DNA from: a virus
Direction: 5' to 3' (one strand)
IMG/VR virus record: IMGVR_UViG_3300045988_180339
Span: 1-18,696 of that record
DNA length: 18,696 nucleotides
A program made the position numbers and the translations under genes. The notes under the pieces are model-generated. The model saw only the letters and a list, made by a program, of their open reading frames with translations, did not search any database and had not been told where the DNA came from. This document shows, piece after piece, positions 1-18,187 of the stretch (positions within the stretch are counted from its first letter, which is position 1; every line of letters starts with the position of its first letter).

Positions 1-5
1 TAGTA

Positions 6-37
6 AACAATATCCAACTTATTTCCCCCAAATAATA
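6..37 (+). repeat. ITR-internal ~30-bp direct repeat copy 1 (AAcAATATCCAACTTaTTTCcCCCcAAAtAATA)
   Basis: Imperfect direct repeat of 129-158 inside the same ITR (core AATATCCAACTT identical). Possible iteron or origin-protein binding site. Confidence 0.6.
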
Positions 38-128
38 ATACCCACAGTATGACCCCACAAAAACACAACCCACTTTCTTTAACCCACATAAGCACAACAC
101 AAACTAACCACAACAAACTGCACCACAA

Positions 129-158
129 AATAATATCCAACTTTTTCGCCCAAAATAC
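129..158 (+). repeat. ITR-internal direct repeat copy 2 (AAtAATATCCAACTTtTTTCgCCCAAAAtA), abutting the -35 element
   Basis: Matches 6-37 with few mismatches. Ends 1 nt before the -35 hexamer of the ITR promoter, so it could double as an operator. Confidence 0.6.
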
Positions 159-187
159 TAGACATCACTTTACACACCTGATATAGT
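159..187 (+). promoter_or_regulatory. Inward-facing sigma70-like promoter inside left ITR: -35 TAGACA (159-164), 17-nt spacer, extended -10 TGaTATAGT (179-187)
   Basis: Near-consensus hexamers with exact 17-nt spacing and a TGn extended -10. Followed about 60 nt later by SD GGAAGGAG (241-248) and ATG 255-257, the last 3 nt of the ITR. Confidence 0.55.
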
Positions 188-254
188 GGTCACTGTCAGC
201 AAGGCAAGGCACCCGGCGATGGGCTTGGGTGCGCTGTTTGGAAGGAGCAGGATT

Positions 255-320
255 ATGGAAATCAAAGAAGCTGTTATCAAAAGCGCGTTGTATCCGTTTG
301 CACTTCAAGTGCTGGGGTAG
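255..320 (+). CDS. 21-aa leader ORF (MEIKEAVIKSALYPFALQVLG) initiated by the ITR-borne SD+ATG
   Basis: Best SD in the region (GGAAGGAG, 6-nt spacer) sits before ATG 255 and stops at TAG 318-320. Immediately followed by a second SD GAGGAGGA (322-329) plus ATG 336 (7-aa ORF). Could be a leader peptide, or the N-terminus of a frameshifted gene. Confidence 0.3.
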   Translation: MEIKEAVIKSALYPFALQVLG

Positions 321-369
321 TGAGGAGGACATCGAATGCTTCAAGTCTCTTATCGATGACAGTTCCGAC

Positions 370-696
370 ATGGCTGGTTACTGCATATCGTTTAGCGGTA
401 GTCGTGACATTGTTAATATGGATCCGACAGTATACAAATTAGACGGTATGACTATTTTCGAATGGAGAAAAGAGAACCGAGCGTTAGCCGCCAGGGTTCG
501 GGAGCTTGAGAGCAGTTACGATCGCGTGATTGATTACAACCATGCACTTACGGTAAACCTGGTTAGCGCGTTAAATGCAAAACCCGACTATGCCGAGTTG
601 CACGCTTTTATTGCTGATTTTGAGAAGTGTATTCTGGACATTTCCGAAGCTATCAATGGAGCGATTGAGGTGGTGAGAGCACATGAAACCAAATAA
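370..696 (+). CDS. Hypothetical early protein (108 aa from ATG 370; ORF open from GTG 229; alternative ATGs at 418 and 448)
   Basis: Long open frame 229-696 with coding-like codon use but no convincing SD at any in-frame start. Contains the motif AELHAFIADFEK shared with the 858-1067 protein. GC about 45%. Confidence 0.4.
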   Translation: MAGYCISFSGSRDIVNMDPTVYKLDGMTIFEWRKENRALAARVRELESSYDRVIDYNHALTVNLVSALNAKPDYAELHAFIADFEKCILDISEAINGAIEVVRAHETK

Positions 697-853
697 CACC
701 CAATACGATATCGGTTACCAAAACGGATACGATGACGGCTATTCCCGAGGATTCTCCGCAGGCTATAGAAAAGGTGCCGATAAGGCGGAGGAGATAAGCA
801 GGCAAAAATTCCAAGACTACGATAGGCGCTACGAGTACCCAAGATGGAGGTGA
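683..853 (+). CDS. Small Tyr/Gly-rich early protein, 56 aa (MKPNNTQYDIGYQNGYDDGYSRGFSAGYRKG...)
   Basis: ATG 683 preceded by GAGGTGGTGAG. Overlaps the stop of the previous ORF. Not in the ORF track (short). GYQxGY motif shared with the next gene. Confidence 0.5.
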   Translation: MKPNNTQYDIGYQNGYDDGYSRGFSAGYRKGADKAEEISRQKFQDYDRRYEYPRWR

Positions 854-857
854 TAGC

Positions 858-1067
858 ATGCCAACGTTCGACAAGGAGAACTCGATAGCATACGTCCGAT
901 ACATCGAGGAGAACTGCCCGCACGTGGACGTTTTCCGAAAGCAAATCGGCAACAGCGGCGTGTACGTTCTGATAGCCGACGGCAACACGTTGTTCGACAC
1001 TTCCGAGCTGCACGCCTTCGTGGCGGGTTATCAGAAGGGATATATGAAGGGTAAGGCTTATCGGTGA
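858..1067 (+). CDS. Hypothetical early protein, 69 aa
   Basis: SD GGAGGTGA 7 nt upstream of ATG 858. C-terminus SELHAFVAGYQKGYMKGKAYR combines the ELHAF(I/V)A motif of ORF 370-696 and the GYQxGY motif of ORF 683-853. Confidence 0.65.
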   Translation: MPTFDKENSIAYVRYIEENCPHVDVFRKQIGNSGVYVLIADGNTLFDTSELHAFVAGYQKGYMKGKAYR

Positions 1068-1255
1068 AGCTGAAGAAACTGATTCCACTGCTCAAGGATG
1101 ATTTCCTCGTCTGCGATTTAGACGAGGGTCTTACTTGGACAGTTGATAGCCACTTTGCAACCGAGGATAATTCGACGGTTTCAAATCAGCTTGAAAAGAA
1201 AATTATCTCGGTTTCCTCTTTCTATGACCAGGTTTTGGTCAGAGTTAAGTTATAA
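1064..1255 (+). CDS. Hypothetical protein, 63 aa, GTG start, in a low-GC (~42%) island
   Basis: GTGA overlap with the upstream stop. Weak SD (AAGGGTAAGG). Clear composition drop relative to the flanks. Confidence 0.4.
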   Translation: MKLKKLIPLLKDDFLVCDLDEGLTWTVDSHFATEDNSTVSNQLEKKIISVSSFYDQVLVRVKL

Positions 1256-1288
1256 TGTCAAAGTGACGTTTGAAAAGGAGGTGATTAA

Positions 1289-1516
1289 ATGATTCGCCGT
1301 AAAATGACCACCACTATTTGCGATGTGGTAACGCCTGATGGGGAGATGCTCGGCGAGGCGTCCTATTACGGCAAAATCAGCCCTGCAAGGCTCGCCAAGG
1401 TGGCGCGTCGGCTGTACAAGAACCAGCTCGCCACTATCACGAACTACCGAACTGTGCAGGAAACTTACGAGATGGAAGAGGAAGCTTTCATCGCAAACGC
1501 AACCAAAGTAGACTAA
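1289..1516 (+). CDS. Hypothetical early protein, 75 aa (basic N-terminus MIRRKM)
   Basis: Strong SD AAGGAGGTGA 7 nt before ATG 1289. Confidence 0.7.
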   Translation: MIRRKMTTTICDVVTPDGEMLGEASYYGKISPARLAKVARRLYKNQLATITNYRTVQETYEMEEEAFIANATKVD

Positions 1517-1531
1517 GAGAAGGAGCAAACA

Positions 1532-2005
1532 ATGACCGCAGAGTTCTATGAAGAGGAACAGGCCATCGCAACCCAGCAGGCTGCAGCCCAGCTTGCCAAC
1601 GGAAACGGCTTCGCGCAGAAGATCGTGCAGGAAGTGAACGAGCAGGGCTTCTACACCACGCTCGACATCTCCACCATGGCAGGAAAGAAGACGCTCTACA
1701 GCGCGACCAACGCGAGCGTGCTTCTCCGCGATTTCATGGAGACTCCGCTTGCGATTGCGAACATCACGTTCGCCCCGTCGGAAATCAGCGACGAGGACGG
1801 CAACCCGCTCACCACGCTCGGTGTCTTCCTCACCGACGAGAACGGCACCACATACAGCTCAACCTCCACGGGCGTTCTCAAGTCGGCTATGCGCATCCTC
1901 GCCAACTTCGGCGAGCCTACCGATTGGGGCGAGCCGCTCACCGTCGTGTGCAAGGAGACCAACACCAGCAAGGGTCGCCGCTACAAGTTCCTCGACGTGG
2001 AGTAG
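1532..2005 (+). CDS. Acidic 157-aa early protein; candidate SSB or DNA-binding replication accessory protein (by position only)
   Basis: SD GAGAAGGAG before ATG 1532. Sits directly upstream of the terminal protein/DNA polymerase gene pair. Followed by a GC-rich hairpin cluster. No motif recognised. Confidence 0.7.
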   Translation: MTAEFYEEEQAIATQQAAAQLANGNGFAQKIVQEVNEQGFYTTLDISTMAGKKTLYSATNASVLLRDFMETPLAIANITFAPSEISDEDGNPLTTLGVFLTDENGTTYSSTSTGVLKSAMRILANFGEPTDWGEPLTVVCKETNTSKGRRYKFLDVE

Positions 2006-2026
2006 CGCGAACTTGCGTGATATCCT

Positions 2027-2119
2027 GGGAGCGTGCGCTTAGGCCGCGCTCCCTCAAAGGGCGCGCCTTAGGGCGCGCCCTTCGTATCACAGCATAAACA
2101 AAGCCCGCTTGCGCGGGCT
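2027..2119 (+). promoter_or_regulatory. Cluster of three GC-rich hairpins between ORF 1532-2005 and the terminal protein gene (candidate U-tract-less terminator/attenuator or RNA processing site)
   Basis: Hairpin 1 is 2027-2033/2047-2053 (GGGAGCG/CGCTCCC). Hairpin 2 is 2057-2067/2072-2082 (AAGGGCGCGCC-tta-GGCGCGCCCTT, perfect 11 bp). Hairpin 3 is 2102-2108/2113-2119 (AGCCCGC/GCGGGCT), just before SD AAAGGAGCAGG. Confidence 0.45.
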
Positions 2120-2138
2120 GGAAAAAGGAGCAGGCATC

Positions 2139-3353
2139 ATGGCGAGGAAGAGAACGGAACTCGATAAGAAGATATCCCGCGCTCAGAAGAATGCCCGAAA
2201 CAAACTATACCGCATCCGTAAAAAGGGCGCAATCAACAGCGAGGAGTTCGACCCTCGCGTCTCCCAGGCAGAGATTAAGCATATGAACGGCTCGCAGAAG
2301 AAGGCATATCTCAGGAAGCTTGAACTGTTCAATGGCCGTGCGAACAAGGTTATCGTGCAGCCTGGAAACGGGATAGCGATTCCCGAGACCAAGCTCAAGG
2401 CGTACAGGCAGGCGGAGCTAGAGCTAAACGCCGCACGCATCATCCGAAGGGCTGGAATAGAGGAGGCGGTGAAGTCGGCGGCGGTTCTCGACATCTCCAG
2501 GATTCAGAAGACGGTGAACAAGGAGATAGCCAGGCGCGAGCGGGCGGAGAAGCTAGGCAAGCCGTACAAGCCGCTCAAGAAGTCGGTTGAGTCTATGCGC
2601 GGCATGCCCGTGAACTGGAACAAGCTTGACATCGACTACCTGGCTAAAGCTCAGAGCTACTACGACCCCGTGTTCAAGCAGTGGAAGCCGGGGGAGCGGA
2701 ACAAGTTCCAAGACCTCGTGCCAATCTGGATGCGCGAGTCCTTCCCCTCCGTGAAGTCGGTAGAGGAGCAGACCAGGAAGGCGAAGGAGGCAAAGGAGCG
2801 AATAAAGGTCGCCAGGAAGCGCTACCCGCAGTACCGAGAGGCGCTCATCGAGAAGGCCATGTTCTCGGGTTACCCCGAGCTTGCCGAGGCGATACGCGCG
2901 CTCACCTACGCGCAGCTCGATTACCTGCACTACTACACGGATTTCGACGCTTGGGGATCGTTCTTCTCGTCGTCGAAGGGCTATATCGCGGGAAATCAGG
3001 CGCTGTTCGAGGAGCAGCGCGACCAGACGGACGATGCTGCCGCGCAGATGATGGCGGAGATTCTGCGGGCGAGGCGCATAAGGCCCGGGCAGTCTGGAAT
3101 ATCGAACATCACTTACAACAAGGAATGGCGCGGCGAGAGGGGCTTTGCGAAGGCGGGCGGAAATCTCGGAAGCACCGGACTGGACCCCGATATCGTCGAT
3201 ACGATGAGCAGGGCGTCCATATCAGGCTCGCGACTCGGGTTCAGGACGTCCATCTTCGACTACAAGGAGAGCAAGGCGGAATCGGCAAACAGCGAGCGCA
3301 TGCTGCATGAGCTTTCCTACGAGATCGCGCGCCAGATAAGGCACGGGAAATGA
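2139..3353 (+). CDS. Putative terminal protein (TP, 404 aa), translationally coupled to the DNA polymerase
   Basis: SD AAAGGAG precedes ATG 2139 (the upstream ATG 2109 lacks an SD). Very basic N-terminus (MARKRTELDKKISRAQKNARNKLYRIRKKG). Stop overlaps the polymerase start (ATGA at 3350-3353). In phi29/Cp-1-like genomes the TP gene immediately precedes the polymerase. Confidence 0.55.
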   Translation: MARKRTELDKKISRAQKNARNKLYRIRKKGAINSEEFDPRVSQAEIKHMNGSQKKAYLRKLELFNGRANKVIVQPGNGIAIPETKLKAYRQAELELNAARIIRRAGIEEAVKSAAVLDISRIQKTVNKEIARRERAEKLGKPYKPLKKSVESMRGMPVNWNKLDIDYLAKAQSYYDPVFKQWKPGERNKFQDLVPIWMRESFPSVKSVEEQTRKAKEAKERIKVARKRYPQYREALIEKAMFSGYPELAEAIRALTYAQLDYLHYYTDFDAWGSFFSSSKGYIAGNQALFEEQRDQTDDAAAQMMAEILRARRIRPGQSGISNITYNKEWRGERGFAKAGGNLGSTGLDPDIVDTMSRASISGSRLGFRTSIFDYKESKAESANSERMLHELSYEIARQIRHGK

Positions 3354-5041
3354 TAGAGTACGCGAGCGACTTCGAGACCACGACGCAGGCCGATGACTGC
3401 CGCGTTTGGGCCTGGGGGTGCGCAAAAGCGTGCGGTGAGCCAGAACCGACGTTCGAGAGCGGTACCGATATCGATTCGTGGCTTGCGCACGTCAAGTCGA
3501 ACCCAGGCCGATACTGGTTCCACAACCTGGGATTCGACTCCCGCTTCGTCATGTGGCACCTGCTCAACTCAGGGTGCGAATGGGTGGAGAAGAAGCCGGT
3601 GGAAGGCCAGTTCTCAACCGTCATAGACAACATGGGAAAGATATACTCGCTAGAGATAGGCAACGAGGGCGGGAAGCTTGTTCTGGCTGACAGCTTCAAG
3701 AAGATTCCGATGAGCCTCGAGAGCGTCGCCCAGGCGTACGACCTGCCCATGTCGAAGGGCGATTTGGACTACGAGGCCTACCGAGAGGTCGGGCACGTGC
3801 TGACGGACGAGGAGATGGACTACCTGTACCGCGACGTGCTGATACTCGCAAGGGCGATGCACAAGCGACTCGAAGTCGGAACAAAGCTCACCACGGGCGC
3901 AGATTGCCTTGAAACCTACAAGGACATCATAGGCAAGGACCTATGGAACAAGTGGTTCCCCCACCTCAACCCGATACTCGACGGCGAGATTCGCCAGGCA
4001 TACCGAGGCGGATACGTGTACTGCAACCCGCTGCACCAGGGGCAGGTCGTAGGAAAGGGGATAGCGCTGGACGTCAACTCTCTTTACCCGTGGGTCATGA
4101 GAACGGCGCTGCTCCCCTGGGGCATGCCGAAGCGAGGGCGCGGCAAGCCGAAGGAGAGCAAGGATTTCCCGCTTTGGGTCGCGGAGGTGCAGTTCGACGC
4201 GACGTTGAAACCCGGGAAACTTCCCTGCATACAGATGAAGAACAACATGTTCTACCGCGATAGGGAGTACATACGCGAGACGGTAGAGCCTATAGACCTC
4301 TGGGTATCGTCGGTAGACTGGAAGCTCATATGCGACATGTACGAGGTCACCGTGTACGCGTGGGGAGCGCATTACCTGTTCCACGGTGCCAAGGGCATGT
4401 ACAACGATTACGTGGATTATTGGATGGCAGAGAAGATCGCGGCGGGCAAGGAGGGAAACCGCGCGAGGCGGCAGAACTCCAAGCTGTGCCTCAACAACCT
4501 GTACGGCAAGTTCGGTCAGAAGGTGGAGGTGCAGGGCAAGGTTCCCGTGCTCGATGCCGACAAGGTTCTCCACCTGCTGCCAGGCGACAAGGGAGAGCGC
4601 GATCCCGTGTACATCCCAAGCGCGGTGTTCATCACCGCATGGGCGAGGGACAAGACGATACGCACCGCCTGCGAGTTCGGGGACAGGTACCTTTACAGCG
4701 ACACCGACTCCATCAAGGCGCTGGGAACGGACATTCCAGACGATGTGCACGTGGACGATTACGAGCTTGGCGCATGGGCGTTGGAGCAGACGTTCGACAA
4801 GGGCATCTTCCTGCGGGCGAAGACCTACGCCACCTACTCCGACGGGCTTTGCGAGTACATATGCGCGGGAATGCCGAACAGCCTCAAGGAGGTCATGCGC
4901 TTCGATGACTTCAGGGTGGGATTCACCACGCTCGGCAGCGACAACCCCGATTACGCGAACAAGGACAACTGGAAGCTCGTGCCGCAGAACGTGCCCGGCG
5001 GTTGCGTGCTGGTGCCAAGGCCGTTTACAATACACGGATAG
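3350..5041 (+). CDS. Protein-primed family-B DNA polymerase (phi29 gp2-like, 563 aa)
   Basis: Exo I DFETT (aa 7-11), Exo II YWFHNLGFD (56-63), Exo III YLYRDV (158-163), YxGG AYRGGY, motif A DVNSLYP (241-247, identical to phi29), motif B KLCLNNLYGKFG (378-389), motif C YSDTDS (449-454), KxY KTYA (491-494). Size close to phi29 gp2. Confidence 0.95.
   Translation: MIEYASDFETTTQADDCRVWAWGCAKACGEPEPTFESGTDIDSWLAHVKSNPGRYWFHNLGFDSRFVMWHLLNSGCEWVEKKPVEGQFSTVIDNMGKIYSLEIGNEGGKLVLADSFKKIPMSLESVAQAYDLPMSKGDLDYEAYREVGHVLTDEEMDYLYRDVLILARAMHKRLEVGTKLTTGADCLETYKDIIGKDLWNKWFPHLNPILDGEIRQAYRGGYVYCNPLHQGQVVGKGIALDVNSLYPWVMRTALLPWGMPKRGRGKPKESKDFPLWVAEVQFDATLKPGKLPCIQMKNNMFYRDREYIRETVEPIDLWVSSVDWKLICDMYEVTVYAWGAHYLFHGAKGMYNDYVDYWMAEKIAAGKEGNRARRQNSKLCLNNLYGKFGQKVEVQGKVPVLDADKVLHLLPGDKGERDPVYIPSAVFITAWARDKTIRTACEFGDRYLYSDTDSIKALGTDIPDDVHVDDYELGAWALEQTFDKGIFLRAKTYATYSDGLCEYICAGMPNSLKEVMRFDDFRVGFTTLGSDNPDYANKDNWKLVPQNVPGGCVLVPRPFTIHG
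5002..5031 (+). promoter_or_regulatory. Candidate internal promoter for the lysis cassette: TTGCGT-18 nt-TACAAT inside the 3' end of the polymerase gene
   Basis: Hexamers 4/6 and 5/6 to consensus, about 12 nt upstream of SD GGGAAGGGAGGTGA and the holin ATG 5059. Confidence 0.25.
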
Positions 5042-5058
5042 GGAAGGGAGGTGATTCA

Positions 5059-5436
5059 ATGGCAGTTTTTCAAGGTTTGGACTGGTACGCGGTCATCGCG
5101 GCTCTTCTATTCATCCTGTTCGACTTCGCGACGGGGATTGCCAAGGCCGCTTATTTTAAGCAGGTCTCATCGACCGTCATGCGCGAGGGACTCTACCACA
5201 AGTTCGCGGAGATTCTCGTCATCGTGCTGGCAGGCGTAATCGACGTCGCATGCGAGCACCTGGAATTGGGGTTCGACACGCCGATTCTAGCGGTGACATG
5301 CGCCTACATCGTTCTCATGGAGGTTGCAAGCATACTTGAGAACATCGGGGCGATGAACCCCGATCTGGCAAACAGCCCCGTTTTCTCTATTTTCAAGAAG
5401 GAAGGCACAACAAATGGCAAGCATTCGGGGAATTGA
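5059..5436 (+). CDS. Holin (125 aa, three predicted TM segments)
   Basis: Strong SD GGGAAGGGAGGTGA. Hydrophobic stretches WYAVIAALLFILFDFATGIA, FAEILVIVLAGVIDVA and ILAVTCAYIVLMEVASILENIG. The SILEN-type motif and hydrophilic C-tail are typical of a phage_holin_4-like family. Immediately upstream of, and overlapping, the endolysin gene. Confidence 0.7.
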   Translation: MAVFQGLDWYAVIAALLFILFDFATGIAKAAYFKQVSSTVMREGLYHKFAEILVIVLAGVIDVACEHLELGFDTPILAVTCAYIVLMEVASILENIGAMNPDLANSPVFSIFKKEGTTNGKHSGN

Positions 5437-6313
5437 CGTGAGCTCGAACCAGCCCGCGGACATCTGCTCGCTGGTAGATTACGATTTCGCGATTGTGAAG
5501 GCTACGGGGAACCCGCCCGGCTACGCGTGGAACTACAAGAACCCGTACATGGAGCAGCAGGTGGACGATGCGCTCGGAAAGACGGGGTGCGCGGGGCTTT
5601 ACCACTTCACGTTCGGGCGCGCCGCCAAGGAGGAGGCGGACTTCTTCTGCGACACGGTGGCCGATTACGCGGGGCGCGCAATGCTGGTCATCGACTACGA
5701 GGGGCAGGCTATCGACAACGGGCGCGAATGGCTTCGCACGTTCGCGCAGCGCATCAAGTACCGCACGGGCGTCAACCCCGTAGTGTACGCGTCAAGCTCG
5801 GTAATTCGAGACCAGGATTTGGAGTCCTTGGCCGAAGAGGAGGATTTGTCTCTTTGGAGCGCGAACTACTGGCGCGGCTACGATACCGTGTACGGCTACG
5901 ACACGAGCGGGATGAAACAGGATATCCCGTCGAGCGCGCTCTGGCAGTTCACCAGCCAGGGAGTGCTCGAAGGCTACGACGGGTACCTTGATTTGGACTT
6001 GTTCTACGGGGATTACGACACGTGGCAGAAATACTGCGCACCGAGCCAAACGCCCGCAGAACCTGAGGAACCAAGCGACCCGGAAGGAGGAAACATGCTA
6101 ACGGAACATCAAGATAGGCTTCTGGCCGTTATTTACGAACAGGTCACGGGCACATACGACCCTACGGGTCGCGGTATCGCGCTCTGCGACCACGACCACA
6201 TCAAGTGGATTGGAAAGCAGACGGCAGACAACGGCGCTGCAATCGAGGACTTGAAGGCTCGGATGGACTCCATCTCCGACAAGCTGGACGTGCTTCTGTC
6301 AGCCAAGGGCTAG
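5414..6313 (+). CDS. Endolysin: N-terminal GH25 muramidase (Cpl-1-like), Pro/Glu-rich linker, ~90-aa C-terminal domain of unknown type
   Basis: GIDVSSNQ, YHFTFG, EEADFFCDTV, LVIDYEG, LWSANY, LWQFTS, LDLDLFYG match the conserved blocks of pneumococcal phage lysozyme Cpl-1 / GH25. Linker is PSQTPAEPEEPSDPEGG. No choline-binding repeats. Confidence 0.85.
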   Translation: MASIRGIDVSSNQPADICSLVDYDFAIVKATGNPPGYAWNYKNPYMEQQVDDALGKTGCAGLYHFTFGRAAKEEADFFCDTVADYAGRAMLVIDYEGQAIDNGREWLRTFAQRIKYRTGVNPVVYASSSVIRDQDLESLAEEEDLSLWSANYWRGYDTVYGYDTSGMKQDIPSSALWQFTSQGVLEGYDGYLDLDLFYGDYDTWQKYCAPSQTPAEPEEPSDPEGGNMLTEHQDRLLAVIYEQVTGTYDPTGRGIALCDHDHIKWIGKQTADNGAAIEDLKARMDSISDKLDVLLSAKG

Positions 6314-6332
6314 CTTCGAGTCAAGCACTCGG

Positions 6333-6365
6333 CGGACAGCGGCCTCAAGCTCGGCGCGCTGTCCG
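6333..6365 (+). other. 9-bp GC hairpin (CGGACAGCG / CGCTGTCCG, 15-nt loop) 20 nt after the endolysin stop; flanked by direct repeat TCAAGC(A)CTCGGCG
   Basis: Seen directly: 6333-6341 pairs with 6357-6365. TCAAGCACTCGGCG (6321-6334) and TCAAGCTCGGCG (6345-6356). Confidence 0.4.
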
Positions 6366-6394
6366 GCATGCAACCAAATATCCCTCCGGGCTGT

Positions 6395-6439
6395 AAGACG
6401 CAGGCACGCGCAGTATACGCGGCCTGCGTCTTTTCTTCT
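6395..6439 (+). terminator. Rho-independent terminator ending the rightward early/replication/lysis transcription unit
   Basis: 11-bp stem AAGACGCAGGC (6395-6405) / GCCTGCGTCTT (6422-6432), 16-nt loop, followed by TTCTTCT. Confidence 0.65.
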
Positions 6440-6810
6440 GCTCGCCGTTCCGCGCCACGCGGACACGAGGTGCTCATCGCCGCACTTGCAAACGGAAACC
6501 TCTATGTCGCACTCCGCTCCCCGCCTGTCCGAATCGGCCTTCACAGCGACTGCCCAGGCGCGGTTCCCGAAACCGCCCTCTAAAATTACGCGCTCCATGT
6601 TCTGCTCCTTTCATTTCCACCGAAATTATGCCACAATGTAAGCGCTGGAGAAGTCCCGTTTCTCTGCCAGTAGCGTAATTCGGGACAGCGGGCCTTGCGG
6701 CCACCGAGGCGCGGTTTCAGGCTGGGGACTTTGAGCAGACTGCGGGTGACTTCCGAGCAACAAAAGACCTGAAACGGGAAGTCTCGCGACTGAACCGTTT
6801 CAGGTCGATT
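6440..6810 (+). ncRNA. Non-coding region with stable hairpins; candidate packaging RNA (pRNA) and/or late-operon leader
   Basis: No ORF with an SD on either strand across about 370 nt in an otherwise gene-dense genome. Contains the 12-bp hairpin 6766-6806 and the repeated GTTTCAGG motif. A gp16-like ATPase and gp10-like connector are present, and phi29-like motors use a pRNA. Assignment is inferential. Confidence 0.3.
6766..6806 (+). promoter_or_regulatory. Perfect 12-bp hairpin GACCTGAAACGG / CCGTTTCAGGTC (17-nt loop) immediately upstream of the scaffold gene SD
   Basis: Seen directly. GTTTCAGG also occurs at 6714-6721 and can pair with the same CCTGAAAC arm (6769-6776), giving mutually exclusive structures. 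Confidence 0.5.
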
Positions 6811-6827
6811 TAGTTTAGGAGGCAAGA

Positions 6828-7133
6828 ATGGATTTCGACGAGCTGCTCAAGCAGTACGACAACATCCACGACACCGAGGGCATCCCCGGTTTCCGCGAGA
6901 CGCTGGTGTCGTACGGCCAGAGCGTCGGGCAGATCTCCGAGGGAGCCAACGCCCGCATCAGCGAGCTAGAGACCGCTCTGGCTGCAGCGGAGGAGAAGGC
7001 TACGAACCTCGCTGCAAGGAACTACGAGCTTATCATCGCGGCGACCGCCCAGGAAGCGGCGGAGGAGAAGCCGACCGATGAGATCACCGACGAGGACAGG
7101 GACGTGAAGACCCTGTTCGGAAAGAAGGAATAA
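6828..7133 (+). CDS. Head scaffolding protein (101 aa, acidic, coiled-coil-like)
   Basis: SD TTTAGGAGG. Ala/Glu-rich heptad-like segment ISELETALAAAEEKATNLAARNYELIIAATAQEAAEEK. Directly precedes the major capsid gene, as phi29 gp7 does. Confidence 0.6.
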   Translation: MDFDELLKQYDNIHDTEGIPGFRETLVSYGQSVGQISEGANARISELETALAAAEEKATNLAARNYELIIAATAQEAAEEKPTDEITDEDRDVKTLFGKKE

Positions 7134-8597
7134 ATGGGAGATGCAATCCTGCAGGCGGACAACGCCGCAATCATCAACAAGGTGCGCGCCAACGCGAGCC
7201 TCGAATACCAGTCGCGAATCCCCGCGGTAACGCAAGCCAACCTGTCCAAGACGTTCGCCACGCTGCAGGCTTACCCGCTGATGTGGAACGAGTTCATGGA
7301 CGTGCTCATCAACCGAATCGGACTCACGCTGTTCAACCAGAACAGCTTCACGAACCGTCTGAAGCCGCTCAAGTCGGGCGCTATGAACTACGGCGGCATG
7401 ATTCAGGAGATCGGCGCGAACCTGCTGCACGCGGAGTCCTACGACCCGAACGACACCAACGTGTTCGGCGGCGAGAAGGCGGACGTGGAGGTGAACTACC
7501 ACCAGATCAACCGACGCGACAAGTACAAGATGCGCGTGAACAACGACCTTTTGGAGGAGGCGTTCCTGAACGACGGGCAGCTTGCGGAGTTCGTGAACAA
7601 CCTGCTGTCCCTCCCGCAGAAGTCCGACGAGTGGGACGAGTACATCATCATGCGCGGCCTGCTCAAGAAGTACCAGGAAGCGGACGGCTTCTTCAACTAC
7701 CAGGTGCCTGACTTGGGAGCGTCCGCAGACCCCGAGGCCGACGGCAAGAAGATCACCGAGCTGCTCCGAGAGGTGTACCTCGACACCAAGGGCTTCTATA
7801 GAACCAAGTACAACGCGCTCGGCATGCAGGTAGCTCCCGAGGAGCTCATCCTTCTCGGCACGCCGAAGTTCTTCGCGAAGCTCGACGTGAACGTGCTCGC
7901 TGCAGCGTACCACATGGACAAGGCAGACTTCCTGGCAGACCGCACCATCGTGGTCGATGATTTCGAGATGCCCGGCACCCAGTGCATGTTCCTCGACAGC
8001 AACTGGTACAAGTGCATGGACACCAAGCTCAAGACCACGAACATGTACAACCCGTCTGCAGACGAGTGGACTTACTACCTCCACCACTGGGGCGTGTACT
8101 CCGCATCCCGTCAGAGCACGTGCATCCGCTTCTCGACCGATGCCGCGACGGCCGTCATCGGCCAGGCCCGCACGGTAACGGGTATCGCAGCGGCGCTCGA
8201 CCCGACGGTGGCAGGCAACAAAGTGCTCGAACCTGGCGCGGACGTCGCGTTCAAGGTGGCGGTATCCTACTCGGACGGAAGCTCCGACTCCAACGCCTAC
8301 GCTATCATCACGACCGAGGACGCGACCGCGCCGACCAAGCTCCCCGCGAACGTCGTGTACCCCGACACGGGAACCTACGTAGACCGCATGGGCGTGCTGC
8401 ACGTGTCCGACACGGCAGCGTTCAACAACCTGACCGTCACCTGGGTTTCAACCATCGACGCGACCAAGCTCGCGTCCGTGAAGCTCACGGCGGCCGATTC
8501 GGCGGTTGCGGCATCCGACGATTCCGCATCGACGCCGACCAAGGCCAAGGCCGTTTCCCGCGCGAAGGCCGTAAAGGCGGCAACCGAGGAAAAGTAA
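7134..8597 (+). CDS. Major capsid protein (487 aa) with a C-terminal Ig-like (BIG2-type) domain
   Basis: Largest structural ORF, following the scaffold gene. The C-terminal ~150 aa are Thr/Ala/Val-rich beta-sandwich-like (TVTGIAAALDPTVAGNKVLEPGADVAFKVAVSYSDGSSD...), as in phi29 gp8. Ends with a Lys/Ala-rich tail. Confidence 0.75.
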   Translation: MGDAILQADNAAIINKVRANASLEYQSRIPAVTQANLSKTFATLQAYPLMWNEFMDVLINRIGLTLFNQNSFTNRLKPLKSGAMNYGGMIQEIGANLLHAESYDPNDTNVFGGEKADVEVNYHQINRRDKYKMRVNNDLLEEAFLNDGQLAEFVNNLLSLPQKSDEWDEYIIMRGLLKKYQEADGFFNYQVPDLGASADPEADGKKITELLREVYLDTKGFYRTKYNALGMQVAPEELILLGTPKFFAKLDVNVLAAAYHMDKADFLADRTIVVDDFEMPGTQCMFLDSNWYKCMDTKLKTTNMYNPSADEWTYYLHHWGVYSASRQSTCIRFSTDAATAVIGQARTVTGIAAALDPTVAGNKVLEPGADVAFKVAVSYSDGSSDSNAYAIITTEDATAPTKLPANVVYPDTGTYVDRMGVLHVSDTAAFNNLTVTWVSTIDATKLASVKLTAADSAVAASDDSASTPTKAKAVSRAKAVKAATEEK

Positions 8598-10772
8598 ATG
8601 GGAAACCTGCTGAAAAGACTTCGCGGCGAGAACCCCGAGAACCTCAACGAGGACTCGGGGTTCACCCCTTATTCGTGGCCCACCGACTCGAAGGCCACGC
8701 TTTGCCGCGTGCCCTGGGACGCCGAATACCGCAACGTGGTGGACTGGCAAGACCAGCAGCACAAGGACAGCTACTTCTCATCGCTTGAATCAGATTCGTG
8801 CGAGCTCGGGTCGATGACGTACCTAAAGCCGAACGACCCGATCTTCGTGGACGTGCCGTTCTCGAAGGCGTACAGCTACAACTACATCGTCGTGGAGAAC
8901 CCCAAGCTCCCCGTTCCGGGAGAGGTGGAGCCGCGCAAGCTCTACTACTTCGTGACGGCGGTAGGCTACGTCGCGCCGAACACCACCTCGATAGCGGTGC
9001 AGCTCGACGTGTGGACGACTTACGGCGACACCGCCGAGTTCGGGCGCTGCTTCGTGGAGCGAGGGCACGTGGGAATAGCGGCCGAGATGAGCAAGCCGAC
9101 GCCTACGGCGGATAAACTGGGACCAGCTCGTTCGAAGGTGTACCGACGCTACCTCACGGCTGCCGAGGGTTTGGACATCGGCAACGAGTACCTGATCGGG
9201 GACGTTGACGCTTTCAGCATCGCCGACTACGACCATGGGTGGGCGGTGGTCATCATGAGCACCACCGACCTTTTGGCCGATTGGGGCACTCTCAGCAACC
9301 CGTCCATGACAACTGCGGACGGCCAGGTTACGGACGGCCTGATAGGCGGGTGCAACGTCTACTCGCTGTCGACCGCCGATTTCAGGCAGTTCATGAAGAA
9401 CATCCGCAACTATCCCTGGGTTGCGAAGGGAATCATCAGCGTAACGGCGTTTCCGAAGGCGCTTCTAACGGACGGGCCCTCTGTGGACAAGGACGGCGTC
9501 ACCCTGTACTTCCTGGGGACGACGCCCGACAAGGGCTTCTACCGTGAAATCGACGATGTTTGGGAGCGATTATCGAAGTCGATTCCAGATCGTTACCGCA
9601 ACCTGCACAAGCTGCTGTGCTATCCGTACTCGGTCATCGAGCTGAACACCTACAACGGAAGCCCTGTGCTTCTGAAACCCGAGCTGCTCAACACCGACAC
9701 GCTCAGGCTCAGGAACATCTCGTGCGCCGTGCCGGGGCACATCAAAATCGGGTTCTACCCCTGGGCATACGACAGCGAGCGCCTCGTGCTGAACGAGTAC
9801 GGCCTGCCCGTGGTGTCGGCTACGATGGACGACCCGACGGTGAACCTGCCTGTTTCGGGTAACTCGCTCGACTCGTGCGTTTGGATGCAGGAAATGCCGA
9901 AGTTCTCGCTTGTGAACGACAACTACCTCAACTACCTCGCTTCCACCACGCATACCCGCGAATGGCAGTACAACTCGGCCGGATGGCAGCAGGCGAAGTC
10001 GAACGCGAGCGCCCACCTGTCGTATGACCAGGCGCAGCAGCAGATAGCGACGAACCGCGCCAACTGGAACGCATCGACGCGGGGCTTGCTGGGCAACGTG
10101 GCGGGCAACATCGGGAACCTTGCGATGAGCGGTGCGGACGCCCTCGGCATAGGCGGCGCGGTAAGCGGTGCGGCCGACTTCGCGAACGGCGTGCTGGGAA
10201 CGGTATCGGGCGCTATCGGTGCTACGGGCTGGGACAACATGCAGGGCATCGTGAACAACCTCACGGGCCTTACCGAGCTGAACAACAACCAGGCCCTGCA
10301 GGGCAACATCGCCTCGCAGAACCTCGACCTGGCCCAGTGGGCGGCGCAGGGAGACTACGAGAACGCGATCGCCAAGATAAACGCGACCGTGCAGGACGCG
10401 GCGCTCACAGCTCCATCGGTCATCGGCCAAGCAGGCGGCAGCGGGTTCTCGATGTCGAACGGCCTCTTCGTCGTGCAGACTAGGTTCAAGACCATCGACC
10501 AGAACCACATGCACATCATCGGCGAGTATTGGCTAAGGTACGGCTACGCGGTGCGCGAGTTCATGGTGCCGCCAGCCGACCTCTGTTGCATGGAGCACTT
10601 CACCTACTGGAAGATGCTGGAGACGAGCGTGGAGTGCGCGCTCGCCGACGAGACGTCTAAGGAGACCATCAGGGGAATATTCGAGAAGGGCGTCACCGTG
10701 TGGAGGAGCGCCGACGAGATAACCACGTGGGACTTATCGGACAACGACCCGATTTTGGGCGATTACTACTAA
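8598..10772 (+). CDS. Tail knob / distal tube protein (phi29 gp9-like, 724 aa) with a Gly-rich hydrophobic loop
   Basis: Position between the capsid and connector genes, as for phi29 gene 9. Gly-rich segment GLLGNVAGNIGNLAMSGADALGIGGAVSGAADFANGVLGTVSGAIGATG (nt about 10080-10230), like the membrane-active loop of gp9. C-terminal GVTVWRSADEITTW resembles the gp9 end. Confidence 0.6.
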   Translation: MGNLLKRLRGENPENLNEDSGFTPYSWPTDSKATLCRVPWDAEYRNVVDWQDQQHKDSYFSSLESDSCELGSMTYLKPNDPIFVDVPFSKAYSYNYIVVENPKLPVPGEVEPRKLYYFVTAVGYVAPNTTSIAVQLDVWTTYGDTAEFGRCFVERGHVGIAAEMSKPTPTADKLGPARSKVYRRYLTAAEGLDIGNEYLIGDVDAFSIADYDHGWAVVIMSTTDLLADWGTLSNPSMTTADGQVTDGLIGGCNVYSLSTADFRQFMKNIRNYPWVAKGIISVTAFPKALLTDGPSVDKDGVTLYFLGTTPDKGFYREIDDVWERLSKSIPDRYRNLHKLLCYPYSVIELNTYNGSPVLLKPELLNTDTLRLRNISCAVPGHIKIGFYPWAYDSERLVLNEYGLPVVSATMDDPTVNLPVSGNSLDSCVWMQEMPKFSLVNDNYLNYLASTTHTREWQYNSAGWQQAKSNASAHLSYDQAQQQIATNRANWNASTRGLLGNVAGNIGNLAMSGADALGIGGAVSGAADFANGVLGTVSGAIGATGWDNMQGIVNNLTGLTELNNNQALQGNIASQNLDLAQWAAQGDYENAIAKINATVQDAALTAPSVIGQAGGSGFSMSNGLFVVQTRFKTIDQNHMHIIGEYWLRYGYAVREFMVPPADLCCMEHFTYWKMLETSVECALADETSKETIRGIFEKGVTVWRSADEITTWDLSDNDPILGDYY

Positions 10773-10784
10773 GGAGGTGCAGCT

Positions 10785-11822
10785 TTGAGCAAGGCAATCA
10801 AGCAGCGCGAGCTTGTTGACTGGCCTGACGAGATGGACCAGATGTACGGGCGCAACTGGGTGCGAAAGATGTTCACCGCAGCCGAGCGGTTCGACCTGAT
10901 GCAGTACCGCCACTGGCTCTGGTACCTGGAATCGCTGGCAATCGGCGCTTTCAAGTGGAGCAACGTACCCGCTGGAATCGACGCGAGGGCGATCGAGTAC
11001 ATCCTGCTGCACTTCGGGCAGGGAGCTTTGTTCATGGACGAGGGCGGCATGCTGTTCGCGGCCGCAGCTCCCGCCGACAACATCAACATGTACTGGAACC
11101 CGAACAAGATCATGCTGACCGCTCCGAACGGCCAGACGTGGGAGCGCCATTGCGAGAGCTGGGTTATGGCAGACGGCGATGGCGGCCACCGCGTCATGCA
11201 CCGCGACGCCGTCATGTGCTTCGACAACATGCGTCGCTTCCCGCTCTACGCGGACATCAGGAACTACGCAAGGCGTCTCGCGAGAATCGACGCCATCCTC
11301 GACGTGAACCACGGCGCGCAGAGAACGCCGTACATCGTAACCGGCAGCGAGGAGGGGAAGAACTCCCGCCGCGACGTCATCAGAAAGCTGGAGAGCAACG
11401 ACCAGTACATACAGATGAACAGCGAGCTATCGGGCAACTTGGGGATGGTGGACGTGCTGCAGACCGTCGCGCCCTACGTGGCCGACAAGCTGCTGTCGGA
11501 CAAGCAGAAGATTCTCAACGAGGCCGTTACCATGCTTGGAATCGACAACACCAACAACGAGAAGCGCGAGCGCATGATAGACGCCGAGGCGACGTCCAAC
11601 AACGAGCAGATAATGGTCATGCGCAGGAACCGCCTTGAGGAGCGAAGGAAGTTCTGCATCAAGGCGAACACCATCTTCCAAGACCTCGACATGTGGGTCG
11701 AATGGGGCGTTCCGCACGAGCGCACGGACATCGACGCGAAGCCGCTCGGCGGCAAGCAGTCGGAAGACGGCGAATCCAAGCCGAAGGGCGGCAGCGCCCC
11801 GACGGGAGGCGATGAGGAATGA
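10785..11822 (+). CDS. Head-tail connector / portal protein (phi29 gp10-like, 345 aa), TTG start
   Basis: SD AAGGAGGTG 6 nt before TTG 10785. YLESLAIGAFKWSNVPAGIDARAIEYILLHFGQGALFMDE aligns with phi29 gp10 [39 protein letters not shown]. Acidic Gly-rich C-tail. Confidence 0.85.
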   Translation: MSKAIKQRELVDWPDEMDQMYGRNWVRKMFTAAERFDLMQYRHWLWYLESLAIGAFKWSNVPAGIDARAIEYILLHFGQGALFMDEGGMLFAAAAPADNINMYWNPNKIMLTAPNGQTWERHCESWVMADGDGGHRVMHRDAVMCFDNMRRFPLYADIRNYARRLARIDAILDVNHGAQRTPYIVTGSEEGKNSRRDVIRKLESNDQYIQMNSELSGNLGMVDVLQTVAPYVADKLLSDKQKILNEAVTMLGIDNTNNEKRERMIDAEATSNNEQIMVMRRNRLEERRKFCIKANTIFQDLDMWVEWGVPHERTDIDAKPLGGKQSEDGESKPKGGSAPTGGDEE

Positions 11823-12382
11823 TATACACCGACGAGGCACCGACCCTGTACGACGTCGTGAACCTCTACGGAGAGGACTACGCGGGAGCTATGGCCGACT
11901 ACCCTATCTGGGACGAGTCGATGAGGGCATGGCTCAACAACCGCATCTACGAGAAGTTCGCGTTCAGGGAGATAGGCGTTGACACGCCCGCGAAGTTCCT
12001 GTTCTTCCTGCGCCGCCGCATGCACGACATGATGCCGACCGTGAACCCCATGTTCGCGGCGTTGGAGGACGTTGACATCCTGGAAGGATACGAGACGTTC
12101 GACGACGCGTCGGCAGATTCGAAATCGAGCGCCGAGCAGGCCAACCTCTACTCGGCGACGCCGCAGACGCAGCTCTCGAACGCGAAGAACTACGCGACGA
12201 ACCTCACGCAGACGGAGGGCGAGAACATGGGCGAGAGCACGCAGAAGGCGCGCCACTACGGCCGCAGCGGCACCGTCGGCGACATGGTGGGCAACTGGGC
12301 GATGAGCGTGAACAACGCGCTCTACATCGTCTACAATGGCATCGAGCCTTTGTTCAACCAGATATGGAAGGAGGACTTCTAA
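11819..12382 (+). CDS. Structural protein, 187 aa (candidate lower collar / adaptor by position)
   Basis: ATGA overlap with the connector gene. SD GGGAGG upstream. No motif recognised. Confidence 0.5.
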   Translation: MIYTDEAPTLYDVVNLYGEDYAGAMADYPIWDESMRAWLNNRIYEKFAFREIGVDTPAKFLFFLRRRMHDMMPTVNPMFAALEDVDILEGYETFDDASADSKSSAEQANLYSATPQTQLSNAKNYATNLTQTEGENMGESTQKARHYGRSGTVGDMVGNWAMSVNNALYIVYNGIEPLFNQIWKEDF

Positions 12383-12988
12383 ATGGCACTTTGGCAAGAC
12401 AAGTGCAACCGCCTCGACTTCGCGTACAGAGGGTACCAGTACCCCGTGCCGCCGTCATGGAAGTACGCGGTGCGCCTCGAAGACCAGATCCAATGGCTGT
12501 TGCAGGCTATCCTCAAAGCGGCGGACGAGGCTGTGTCGGCAGGCGACCTGATGGACTTCAGAAACGAGATGTACGATTTCATCGACCGCGTGGCGGCGGC
12601 GCTGGAAGAGGAAATCGATGAGTATTCGCAGCGGCGCGCATGGTGCTGCTCGCCAGTGGACGGAGCATTGCGCTCGATGGGCGTGGTCGCCCGCCAAGTC
12701 TACGATGCGGCGCGTCCGCTGGCGATGAGGTACAGGGAGTTCGACGAAATCGGAATGACGTACGACGCGCTCAAGGCAGAGGGCAGGAAGTACAACGACG
12801 TTGACTTCCATAGCAACCTGTACTGGGGCAACGGCAACCTGTTGGCGAACACCACGCCCGCCGAGGCTATTTCAGACCCCGTCGCGGGGGAGCCTGGAGC
12901 GTGGAACCCGACAGGCGGCGGTTACTCGAAGGGAACCACCTACTCGCAGATAAACGAGAACGGGTTCATGTACCGGAAGGAGGCGTGA
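12383..12988 (+). CDS. Structural protein, 201 aa (tail/collar-associated, unknown)
   Basis: Strong SD GGAAGGAGG before ATG 12383. Lies between the connector and fibre genes. Confidence 0.6.
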   Translation: MALWQDKCNRLDFAYRGYQYPVPPSWKYAVRLEDQIQWLLQAILKAADEAVSAGDLMDFRNEMYDFIDRVAAALEEEIDEYSQRRAWCCSPVDGALRSMGVVARQVYDAARPLAMRYREFDEIGMTYDALKAEGRKYNDVDFHSNLYWGNGNLLANTTPAEAISDPVAGEPGAWNPTGGGYSKGTTYSQINENGFMYRKEA

Positions 12989-12989
12989 C

Positions 12990-13967
12990 ATGGCACTTCC
13001 TACTTTCGAGTACGACAGGCGAATCGACATCGTGGACGCGCTGAACGAGCTTTCCACCGCAGCCGATGCGGCCATCGAAGCGGGAGGCGGCTCTAGCAGC
13101 TACGTCCTCCCCGTTGCCGCTGACGCCGTGCTGGGCGGCGTAAAAGGCCAGCGCGTGGAAGAGAAGGACGGCAACGGCAGGATCGTGCAGGTAACGCCCG
13201 ACGGAACCGCCTTCATCGACGCAGCCGACGCGCTGAACCCAGGCGTCGTGCGATCCAAGGAAGGCAATTCGTTCGCCGACACCGATGCAAACATCGCCGT
13301 CAACGCGCACGGCTACATGAAGTGCGACGCTCCCAAGGCCTACGTCGATGCGCAGGTTGCGGGCGTGGAGGCGCACCTGGAAGCGTTCGAGGCGGAGGCC
13401 GTCACGCAGGCCGAGGGGGCGAACGCCATCCAAGCGACTATCGCGCCTACGGAGAGCGCCGGCTCGAAGCTGACAGTCTCGCTCAAGTACGGCACAGGGC
13501 TTGCCGTGCAGAACGGAACCCTCGTGGCAACGGGAGGCGGAGAGGTTACGCAAAAAGTCGTTTCCTTAGCCGCTAATGAAACATTGCCGTTAGGCAATTT
13601 AACGATGCAGGTTGAGCGCAATGGAATTTACTTCGTCACTGTAAGCCAACAGCAAAGATTCGACGCACTGCTGATAAACGCAGTGTTTGCCGTATCATCA
13701 GAATTAGCTGGCCCCGGGTTTAACTTTACATGCCCTAACAGTAACAAAGCTACAAAATGGGTTGTCAACAGCATAGAAGCACCTGATTTAATTAGAACGC
13801 AATTCAAGGTGCCAGTTTTAGGGGGATACGTTCAAAGAGACGTAGAATCGTATACTAATACATACGCCGTCTGCAATGCTTCCGAAACATCGTTATTTAT
13901 CTCTAGTTTCTCAAGCAGCAAAAAATCCTTTTATATGTATCCTCTCACTGTGGTCAGATATCATTAA
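12990..13967 (+). CDS. Receptor-binding tail fibre / appendage protein 1 (325 aa) with a low-GC C-terminal head domain
   Basis: SD GGAAGGAGG. N-terminus (LPTFEYDRRIDIVDALNELSTAADAAIEAGGGSSSYVLPVAADAVLGGVKG) is paralogous to the N-terminus of the next gene and carries a phage-fibre-type repeat (GGVKG...VTPDG). Nucleotides about 13555-13967 drop to ~41% GC. Confidence 0.65.
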   Translation: MALPTFEYDRRIDIVDALNELSTAADAAIEAGGGSSSYVLPVAADAVLGGVKGQRVEEKDGNGRIVQVTPDGTAFIDAADALNPGVVRSKEGNSFADTDANIAVNAHGYMKCDAPKAYVDAQVAGVEAHLEAFEAEAVTQAEGANAIQATIAPTESAGSKLTVSLKYGTGLAVQNGTLVATGGGEVTQKVVSLAANETLPLGNLTMQVERNGIYFVTVSQQQRFDALLINAVFAVSSELAGPGFNFTCPNSNKATKWVVNSIEAPDLIRTQFKVPVLGGYVQRDVESYTNTYAVCNASETSLFISSFSSSKKSFYMYPLTVVRYH

Positions 13968-13977
13968 GGAGTAAACC

Positions 13978-14850: not shown

Positions 14851-14853
14851 GCC

Positions 14854-16155: not shown

Positions 16156-16186
16156 AAAGCGTCCCTCGGAAATGAAGGTTATCAAC

Positions 16187-17260: not shown

Positions 17261-17278
17261 TGTGCAGCCGCTGCACAT

Positions 17279-17309
17279 AAAGAAACCCCCGCGTTTGCGG
17301 GGTTTCTTT
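17279..17309. terminator. Bidirectional rho-independent terminator between convergent transcription units
   Basis: AAAGAAACCCCCGCG-TTT-GCGGGGTTTCTTT: GC stem of about 13 bp with a tetraloop, flanked by an A-tract on one side and a T-tract on the other. It overlaps the stop of the minus-strand gene 17308-17799 and follows the ATPase stop (17260). Confidence 0.75.
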
Positions 17310-17799: not shown

Positions 17800-17800
17800 T

Positions 17801-17935
17801 TTAACTCCTCTCGTACAAAGCGAAGACAGCGATGAACTGTGCAATTCCCACGATCCCCCAAGGTTCTGGAGCGAAGAACATCGCGAAGGCTGCCAGAATC
17901 ATCGAGGCAGCAAACGCGACATCTGCGGCGGTCAT
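17801..17935 (-). CDS. Small hydrophobic peptide, 44 aa (MTAADVAFAASMILAAFAMFFAPEPWGIVGIAQFIAVFALYERS), two predicted TM helices
   Basis: ATGA overlap with the stop of the upstream gene 17932-18186. Its last codons (GAG AGG AGT TAA) form the SD of the next gene. Not in the ORF track because it is short. Confidence 0.45.
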   Translation of the reverse strand: MTAADVAFAASMILAAFAMFFAPEPWGIVGIAQFIAVFALYERS

Positions 17936-18186: not shown

Positions 18187-18187
18187 T

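Follow-up and report, generated by a model that had tools for sequence, protein, structure and literature searches.

The IMG/VR virus record IMGVR_UViG_3300045988_180339 (positions 1 to 18,696, analysed over its full length and called the window here) is a complete phi29-like podovirus genome of 18,696 bp with perfect 257-bp inverted terminal repeats (ITRs). Directly upstream of its late genes lies a non-coding block that is under strong purifying selection, with compensatory base changes in three helices and in a hairpin just downstream. In comparative folds the predicted transcript of this block takes on a three-way-junction architecture resembling that of prohead RNA (pRNA). At about even odds (probability roughly 0.5), we favour the reading that the transcript is a pRNA-like small RNA, which would arise from the late operon when its leader transcript is terminated or processed. 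On either reading the RNA motif is new: it is a pRNA that has diverged far from the known ones and is wired into its genome in a new way, or else a late-operon leader of a new kind.

The non-coding block before the late genes

The block occupies most of an intergenic region of 229 nucleotides (nt; 6599-6827) between ORF99, a minus-strand gene described below, and the scaffold ATG. An earlier sequence-only reading had placed it in the only sizeable non-coding region of the genome. It does lie in the largest internal non-coding stretch, which is shorter than had been supposed; the 103-nt SSB-TP gap and the first 254 nt of each ITR, before the start codon, are non-coding as well. The comparison drew on 16 distinct copies of the locus, which came from IMG/VR and human-gut metagenomes and represent ~5 lineages. 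Two extended -10 promoters, inferred together with the RNA ends from sequence, appear to stand back to back in the region. In the alignment, every clade keeps the ORF99 -10-like box at one position (TATAAT in L003 and L029), and the position of the rightward box is likewise kept in each of them (TGCGATAAT in L003). The conserved block starts 6-8 nt downstream of the rightward box, at the predicted transcription start. The features of the region are listed below.

6625-6633, minus strand: predicted extended -10 promoter TGGCATAAT for ORF99, read from the letters of the region
6629-6637, plus strand: predicted extended -10 promoter TGCCACAAT for the leader RNA and late operon, with a start at ~6644
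6644-6758, plus strand: domain I, a predicted pRNA-like three-way-junction fold of 115 nt, from an RNAalifold consensus with compensatory changes
6644-6670, plus strand: 5' strand of the predicted A-like helix, pairing with 6731-6758; internal loop UUC 6660-6662 / CU 6740-6741
6673-6712, plus strand: predicted C/E-like arm, with helices 6673-76/6709-12 and 6680-83/6704-07, a 5' bulge GACAGCG at 6684-6690 and the hairpin GGCC-UUGC-GGCC at 6691-6702
6686-6689, plus strand: bulge 4-mer CAGC, a candidate for a kissing contact or pseudoknot with the complementary GCUG of the D-like loop (6721-6724)
6713-6730, plus strand: predicted D-like hairpin, with a 6-bp stem 6713-18/6725-30 and the loop AGGCUG at 6719-6724
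6714-6721, plus strand: upstream copy of GTTTCAGG; another copy at 6797-6804 and the complement CCTGAAAC at 6768-6775
6750-6754, plus strand: CUUCC, able to pair with the scaffold Shine-Dalgarno GGAGG at 6818-6822 or with GGAAG at 6777-6781, as alternatives to the A-like helix
6759-6765, plus strand: linker of 7 nt, single-stranded and A-rich, variable in sequence and length, in all clades
6766-6806, plus strand: terminator-like hairpin of 41 nt, the candidate equivalent of pRNA domain II; perfect 12-bp inverted repeat 6766-6777/6795-6806 with the top GAAGUC-NNNN-GACU
6817-6830, plus strand: scaffold Shine-Dalgarno AGGAGG (6817-6822) and ATG (6828); the scaffold gene is the first late gene

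Identity over 6644-6760 ranged from 0.76 to 0.99 across the locus set, compared with 0.45-0.66 at four-fold degenerate sites of the adjacent late genes. The block was conserved even across lineages whose neighbouring ORF99 could not be aligned. Within the window's own clade it was invariant, apart from a 1-nt difference at the alignment edge, despite 34% synonymous divergence. Indels of 1 nt within the block exclude a coding function. A 79-amino-acid (aa) minus-strand open reading frame (6586-6825) and a 25-aa plus-strand one (6695-6772) were rejected as coding, since they stay open only where the DNA is invariant and are interrupted in other clades by 1-nt indels. A covariance model built from the block found exactly one copy per genome and gave no match in distant phages. 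No other conserved structured non-coding region was found in the rest of the genome.

The predicted fold is closed by the A-like helix of ~22 bp, which was present in both minimum-free-energy and consensus folds. Unsupervised RNAalifold of the plus strand returned the inner part of this helix (6655-59/6742-46 and 6663-70/6731-39) followed by a three-way junction, and single-sequence folds extended it to 6644/6758. A comparative alignment, which the sequence-only reading had proposed as a check, did reveal compensatory changes, located in the inner A-like, apical C/E and D-like helices as well as in the downstream hairpin. Pair 6664-6738 of the inner A-like helix covaries (CG, UA, GC, GU), and pairs 6663-6739 and 6659-6742 switch between wobble and Watson-Crick. 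In the apical hairpin of the C/E-like arm, pair 6693-6700 changes from C-G to U-A in five sequences and 6694-6699 becomes U-G in L029, while the loop reads GUAA in L015 and L026. The D-like hairpin shows a U-A to C-G change at pair 6715-6728 in six sequences and wobble/Watson-Crick switches at three more pairs, with no unpaired cell in the alignment. Variation elsewhere is almost entirely confined to predicted loops or bulges.

Overall, 98.5% of cells are paired in the consensus fold and seven pairs carry double changes, as counted on the same alignment that gave the structure; none of 500 column shuffles reached its covariation score. The plus strand was favoured over the minus strand, on which 84.7% of cells are paired and the alifold energy is -39 rather than -47. 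A minus-strand RNA was rejected on this poorer energy and on the many G-U pairs that would become A-C mismatches. A long-range helix, 6650-57/6725-32, is compatible with the data but clashes with the better-supported D-like hairpin; it was set aside as at most a possible alternative conformer.

Likeness to prohead RNA

The window encodes a gp10-like connector (PF05352, E=8e-42) and a gp16-like ATPase (PF05894, E=2e-39), as the sequence-only reading had recognised, and both the leader RNA and pRNA are thus encoded by phi29-type podoviruses carrying these two packaging proteins. That reading had also nominated the region as a candidate pRNA locus. Comparative folding bears this out in part: 6644-6758 is predicted to share the layout, kissing complementarity and domain sizes of pRNA, and the covariance model for the known family, Rfam RF00044, finds no match.

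The dot-bracket string of 6644-6758 (115 nt) and that of the Rfam pRNA consensus (113 nt) are nearly superimposable, at a tree-edit distance of 26. None of 1000 shuffles came as close (87.5±19.9), and the minimum among 2478 genome windows was 38. True pRNAs gave distances of 31 (GA-1, highly diverged) and 46-64 (B103). The purely unsupervised consensus of the block gave 37-48, and the minimum-free-energy folds of L015 and L026 gave 41. A descriptor of pRNA architecture with a 4-nt kissing contact matched phi29 pRNA, and in the window only the site at 6691; the homologous site was matched in seven of ten relatives. Across 2.24 Mb of dinucleotide-shuffled sequence it gave two false positives, or 43 when the kissing requirement was dropped, odds that are optimistic since the descriptor was written after both structures had been seen.

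As in pRNA, the 5' and 3' ends of the leader are predicted to pair and close domain I, with an internal 3-nt loop, and a three-way junction is present. The C/E-like arm has a bulge on its 5' side only (7 nt, compared with 9 nt in pRNA) and a 4-bp apical hairpin, and the D-like hairpin has 6 bp, as in pRNA. Four Watson-Crick pairs could form between the bulge and the last four bases of the D-like loop. These 4-mers, CAGC (6686-6689) and GCUG (6721-6724), occupy the positions of the phi29 AACC/GGUU kissing contact and are invariant while adjacent loop bases vary. Domain I, linker and hairpin measure 115/7/41 nt in the leader, for a predicted total of ~170 nt, and 117/13/44 nt in phi29 pRNA (PMC5066667). 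The two RNAs differ in G+C content (63% in the leader, 41% in phi29 pRNA) and in the unpaired bases at the junction (2+0+0 and 1+3+0, respectively).

Several observations weigh against a pRNA. RF00044 gave no match, at the gathering score or at E<=10, in the whole window, in 6635-6830 alone (196 nt) or in three relatives, and no sequence or covariance-model similarity to known pRNAs was found in either direction. The leader sequence is far more conserved than those of pRNAs usually are; known pRNAs share 12% similarity (PMC5066667), and reports of pRNA have so far come only from Bacillus phages (PMC11476376, PMC5066667). The leader lies at 6.6 kb, directly before the scaffold gene, whereas the pRNA of phi29 and GA-1 is a stand-alone early gene near the left end. 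The element has no late promoter separate from its own, and the same position would suit a cis-regulator equally well.

The fold also has its weak points. Domain I alone is no more stable than shuffled sequences (z -0.4). Single-sequence minimum-free-energy folds vary by clade, and the consensus fold without the outer helix lies 7-22 kcal/mol above them. The statistics are optimistic in that the outer helix was taken from a single-sequence fold, and one of its pairs is broken by a U6654 to C change unless the register shifts. Both segments of the C helix are invariant and so offer no substitutions to score. With just ~5 independent lineages the covariation is thin, and its power was not raised by searches with the alignment of the major capsid protein (MCP), which yielded no further distant relatives in IMG/VR or GTDB genomes. 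A search with the scaffold protein returned just 15 clusters, and conserved-core DNA patterns recovered from IMG/VR four contigs already in the set and two chance matches of 18-22 nt (L024 and L025) with no wider similarity around them.

Two of these objections are softened by controls. RF00044 scored phi29 pRNA at 145 bits and B103 at 50 bits, below its gathering score of 100, and did not detect the annotated GA-1 pRNA at E<=0.01 (B103 and GA-1 control sites: L043 172-287; L044 519-679). A missing Rfam match had been put forward as counting against a pRNA here; because the model misses the authentic GA-1 pRNA, that test is not valid and the missing match is weak evidence. More generally, it should not be taken to mean a missing pRNA. 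The GA-1 pRNA gene, too, lies inside its genome (1.7-1.9 kb), directly beside the following promoter, which indicates that position does not strictly define a pRNA.

Under the favoured reading, divergent promoters would drive transcription leftward into ORF99 and rightward into the ~170-nt non-coding RNA, composed of the 115-nt 5' domain, a short linker and the 41-nt terminator-like hairpin. A transcription stop or processing at this hairpin would release a discrete small RNA. This could multimerise on the connector through the bulge-loop contact and dock the gp16-type ATPase. Read-through past the hairpin would instead give the late mRNA for scaffold, capsid, tail, connector and ATPase. Termination, read-through and any role in packaging are, in this scheme, inferred.

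A stronger version, which we consider doubtful, holds that the element serves both as a genuine prohead RNA, which would be the first known from beyond the Bacillus phages, and as an attenuating late-operon leader. One promoter would then supply packaging RNA as the terminated form and structural-gene mRNA as the read-through form, and competition among the A-like helix, the hairpin top and the ribosome-binding site would couple the supply of pRNA to late-gene expression.

Whether other phi29-type motors use RNA at all is open in the field. Here a high-G+C phi29-like lineage from the human gut carries one strongly constrained non-coding RNA with predicted pRNA architecture and no sequence similarity to pRNA. 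If this is a pRNA, RNA-dependent packaging would span phyla, a very divergent second reference would become available for what matters in the pRNA fold, and fusion of the pRNA to the late-operon leader would represent a new kind of wiring.

Control elements as alternatives

As the main alternative, the leader may be a purely cis-acting attenuator of the late operon, with the conserved domain serving as a sensor or factor-binding platform and its likeness to pRNA a coincidence. We regard this as possible, if somewhat unlikely; it is not mutually exclusive with a pRNA-like role. By default, the A-like helix and the hairpin would both form, and transcription would stop or CUUCC would mask the ribosome-binding site. 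Read-through would follow once a ligand, or a factor from phage or host, released GACUUCC for pairing with the hairpin top GGAAGUC. The location fits such a scheme, since the element separates the first late gene from the sole plausible late promoter and leaves no space for another. Near-total sequence conservation is likewise typical of aptamers or factor-binding RNAs.

The hairpin at 6766-6806 is the element on which this explanation turns. The sequence-only reading was right about its perfect 12-bp repeat and misplaced it slightly: it ends 10 nt, not 6 nt, before the scaffold AGGAGG. It occurs in every clade, with a lower stem that differs in sequence and covaries and a top that is conserved. 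A good, canonical U tract follows it in four clades (L004, L016, L029 and L032), and a poorer one in the window. The 3' strand of the A-like helix, GACUUCC, is itself invariant and is complementary to the top GGAAGUC in all clades, over 7-12 bp with wobble-compatible changes; CUUCC is also complementary to the GGAGG Shine-Dalgarno in all of them. However, the conformation pairing the A-like helix 3' strand with the hairpin top is 6-19 kcal/mol less stable. The proposed switch partners, including every partner of CUUCC, are all invariant, so covariation can neither test nor support these pairings. There was no match to an Rfam riboswitch or leader family, no antiterminator-like protein was recognised among the products, and ORF99 has no assignable fold. 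A purely cis-acting role would also leave the match to pRNA architecture and the kissing positions unexplained.

Two known types of control resemble this arrangement. Late control in phage lambda runs from the PR' promoter through the ~194-nt 6S RNA to the tR' terminator, and the late genes are read through under Q. The likeness lies in a constitutive-looking promoter and a short structured transcript that would end at a hairpin just 5' of the late genes, a layout in which late expression would need read-through. In contrast to lambda, no Q-like protein or Q-binding site was identified here, the leader is strongly conserved and elaborately folded, and the phage family and host are unrelated. 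Riboswitches and protein-dependent attenuators share with the leader a three-way-junction domain, a P1-like closing helix, a linker and a terminator-like hairpin, with the 3' strand of P1 complementary to part of that hairpin. The leader differs from them in matching no known family and in the much lower stability of its alternative fold.

Control at the DNA level, as in the phi29 A2c/A2b-A3 region bound by p4 and p6, is very unlikely. On that account proteins would bind the block at in-phase sites (RAAGTCNC at 6650, 6725-32, 6746-53 and 6778), and the hairpin would do no more than protect the late mRNA from its 5' end or mark that end. The arrangement does recall phi29 in its divergent promoter region of ~220-230 bp directly before the scaffold gene, between an upstream gene block and the late genes, with a small divergent gene (ORF99, 99 aa) alongside. 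GAAGTC-type motifs recur at centre spacings of 75, 21 and 32 bp, and two motif copies carry the same T to C change (6654 and 6728). But the block lies downstream of the predicted start rather than around the promoter, and GAAGTCNC is not over-represented (4 found, 3.2 expected). The compensatory and wobble-compatible changes in three helices, together with the strand asymmetry, favour an RNA that is, by prediction, transcribed. The replication genes lie outside the divergent unit here, unlike in phi29. ORF99 is unrelated to p4 and p6, with no match by sequence or fold to these or to other DNA-binding families, and its protein types fall to ~20% identity while the block stays at 76-99%, which is unlike a cognate pair of protein and site.

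The sequence-only reading had noted a repeated motif, GTTTCAGG, which is indeed clustered here (four copies in the genome against 0.53 expected, three of them within 91 nt), with two coordinates off by one (correctly, GTTTCAGG at 6797-6804 and CCTGAAAC at 6768-6775). Its proposal that the copy at 6714-6721 competes with 6797-6804 for CCTGAAAC, opening the hairpin as an anti-terminator or anti-sequestor, has perfect 8-bp complementarity and a predicted duplex energy of -22.5 kcal/mol in its favour, yet is the least probable of all and is not supported as a mechanism shared by the lineages: only in the window's own clade is this copy complementary to the hairpin arm, the arms changed in L015, L026, L003, L029 and the L004 group without a matching change at 6714-6721, the strongest upstream partner varies by clade, and 6714-6718 is already engaged in the covariation-supported D-like hairpin.

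ORF99, its embedded terminator and the wider genome

The span 6314-6827, bounded by the stop of the GH25 endolysin gene (6313) and the scaffold ATG, had been described as a gene-free region of 515 bp. This proved incorrect, as 300 of its 515 bases belong to ORF99, a real and fast-evolving gene. The features of this part of the span are as follows.

6299-6598, minus strand: ORF99, gene for a 99-aa protein, overlapping the 3' end of the endolysin gene by 15 nt
6605-6611, minus strand: putative ORF99 Shine-Dalgarno AAAGGAG, 6 nt upstream of the ATG, as read from the sequence
6395-6439, plus strand: intrinsic terminator of the left (replication and lysis) operon, inside ORF99 codons 54-68; hairpin and T tract
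6333-6341/6357-6365, no strand assigned: 9-bp hairpin inside ORF99, particular to this genome

Databases hold 67 homologues of ORF99, nearly all of exactly 99 aa. The gene is found at the same position in all 16 related genomes, with its start 225-230 nt from the scaffold ATG, and this position is kept by six divergent protein types whose DNA is unalignable. The types share the motif ME..LEGG...AW...E.EV..Y. Within the window's own clade, variable sites fall 29/26/56 over the three codon positions. AlphaFold2 predicted four strands followed by two helices, with a mean confidence score (pLDDT) of 90.5. There was no Pfam or PHROG match and no significant fold match, and the family is restricted to this phage group. 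A region that seems gene-free can thus conceal a conserved orphan gene with a terminator embedded in it.

The canonical terminator reported at 6395-6439 was confirmed, though it lies inside the convergent ORF99. It comprises an 11-bp stem (6395-6405/6422-6432), an inner CGCG/CGCG stem and the tail TTTTCTTCT. An equivalent plus-strand hairpin and T tract, built from unrelated stem sequences, was present in all clades (nine of nine representatives, including L003, L004, L015, L026, L029 and L032). Its presence at the same place with unrelated stems in every lineage indicates a conserved functional terminator. The replication-lysis operon terminator is therefore written into the coding sequence of ORF99. 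G+C at third codon positions is low in ORF99 (0.68, compared with 0.78-0.87 in other genes), which the embedded terminator may explain. The terminator also dictates a basic 'RRK/KK + hairpin-encoded' peptide segment in the protein. In L015 (6618-6869) the ORF99 homologue is cut to 83 aa right after the embedded terminator, compared with 97 aa in the closely related L026; perhaps the protein can do without its C-terminal tail, or perhaps there is an error in the contig. The 9-bp hairpin at 6333-6365 exists as described, within ORF99. Its energy is -26 kcal/mol in the window and -12 to -18 kcal/mol, with mismatches, in the closest relatives, where partner positions vary independently. This degradation makes it look incidental, and it probably is.

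Other products of the window include a phi29-type SSB, a protein-primed PolB (PolB type 2), a holin and a GH25 endolysin, and the late products comprise a scaffold-like protein, a Phi29_MCP capsid protein, a gp9 tail knob and the connector and ATPase noted above, with the late gene order scaffold-MCP-tail-connector. The holin and endolysin genes (5002-6313) lie directly 3' of the DNA polymerase gene, which they overlap, in the left operon, unlike their phi29 counterparts in the late operon. Lysis timing must therefore be controlled differently here. Each ITR (1-257 and 18440-18696) contains an A/C-rich terminal tract, a TAGACA-17-TGATATAGT promoter, a leader, a Shine-Dalgarno sequence and the ATG of the first gene, so promoter and start codon are common to both terminal operons.

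The SSB-TP gap (2006-2108) was considered as another pRNA site and rejected, being variable in length, carrying a 28-nt clade-specific insert and lacking a three-way junction. It contains GC-rich hairpins, one of which is that insert, and a minus-strand terminator-like hairpin at 2102-2119. This last gave a weak CRISPR-DR28 match (28.5 bits, below threshold) and has no minus-strand gene nearby.

Near and distant DNA searches of INPHARED phages found no DNA-level relative of the window; the nearest cultured relatives are actinobacterial phi29-like phages with a capsid identity of ~33%. Among these distant phages, the Arthrobacter phage Anjali (L038 4993-5294) and the Curtobacterium phage Prophecy (L039 3985-4178) have gaps of 190-300 nt just 5' of the scaffold-like gene. 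Neither gap was matched by the covariance model of the block or by the pRNA descriptor, and neither showed similarity to the leader element. The Anjali gap contains a strong GGGAGACCCC hairpin and a possible unannotated small open reading frame.

ARAGORN found no tRNA or tmRNA in the window. The ATPase gene is separated from the right-end minus-strand operon by a bidirectional terminator hairpin, CCCCGCGTTTGCGGGG (17287-17302), which has T tracts on both strands. At 13500-14000, in the 3' part of an open reading frame at 12990-13967, G+C falls sharply to 41-47%, compared with ~60%, and forms an island. Relatives carry at this locus genes that are of another size or split (325, 399 or 216+111 aa), which suggests that the island is a swapped receptor-binding module.

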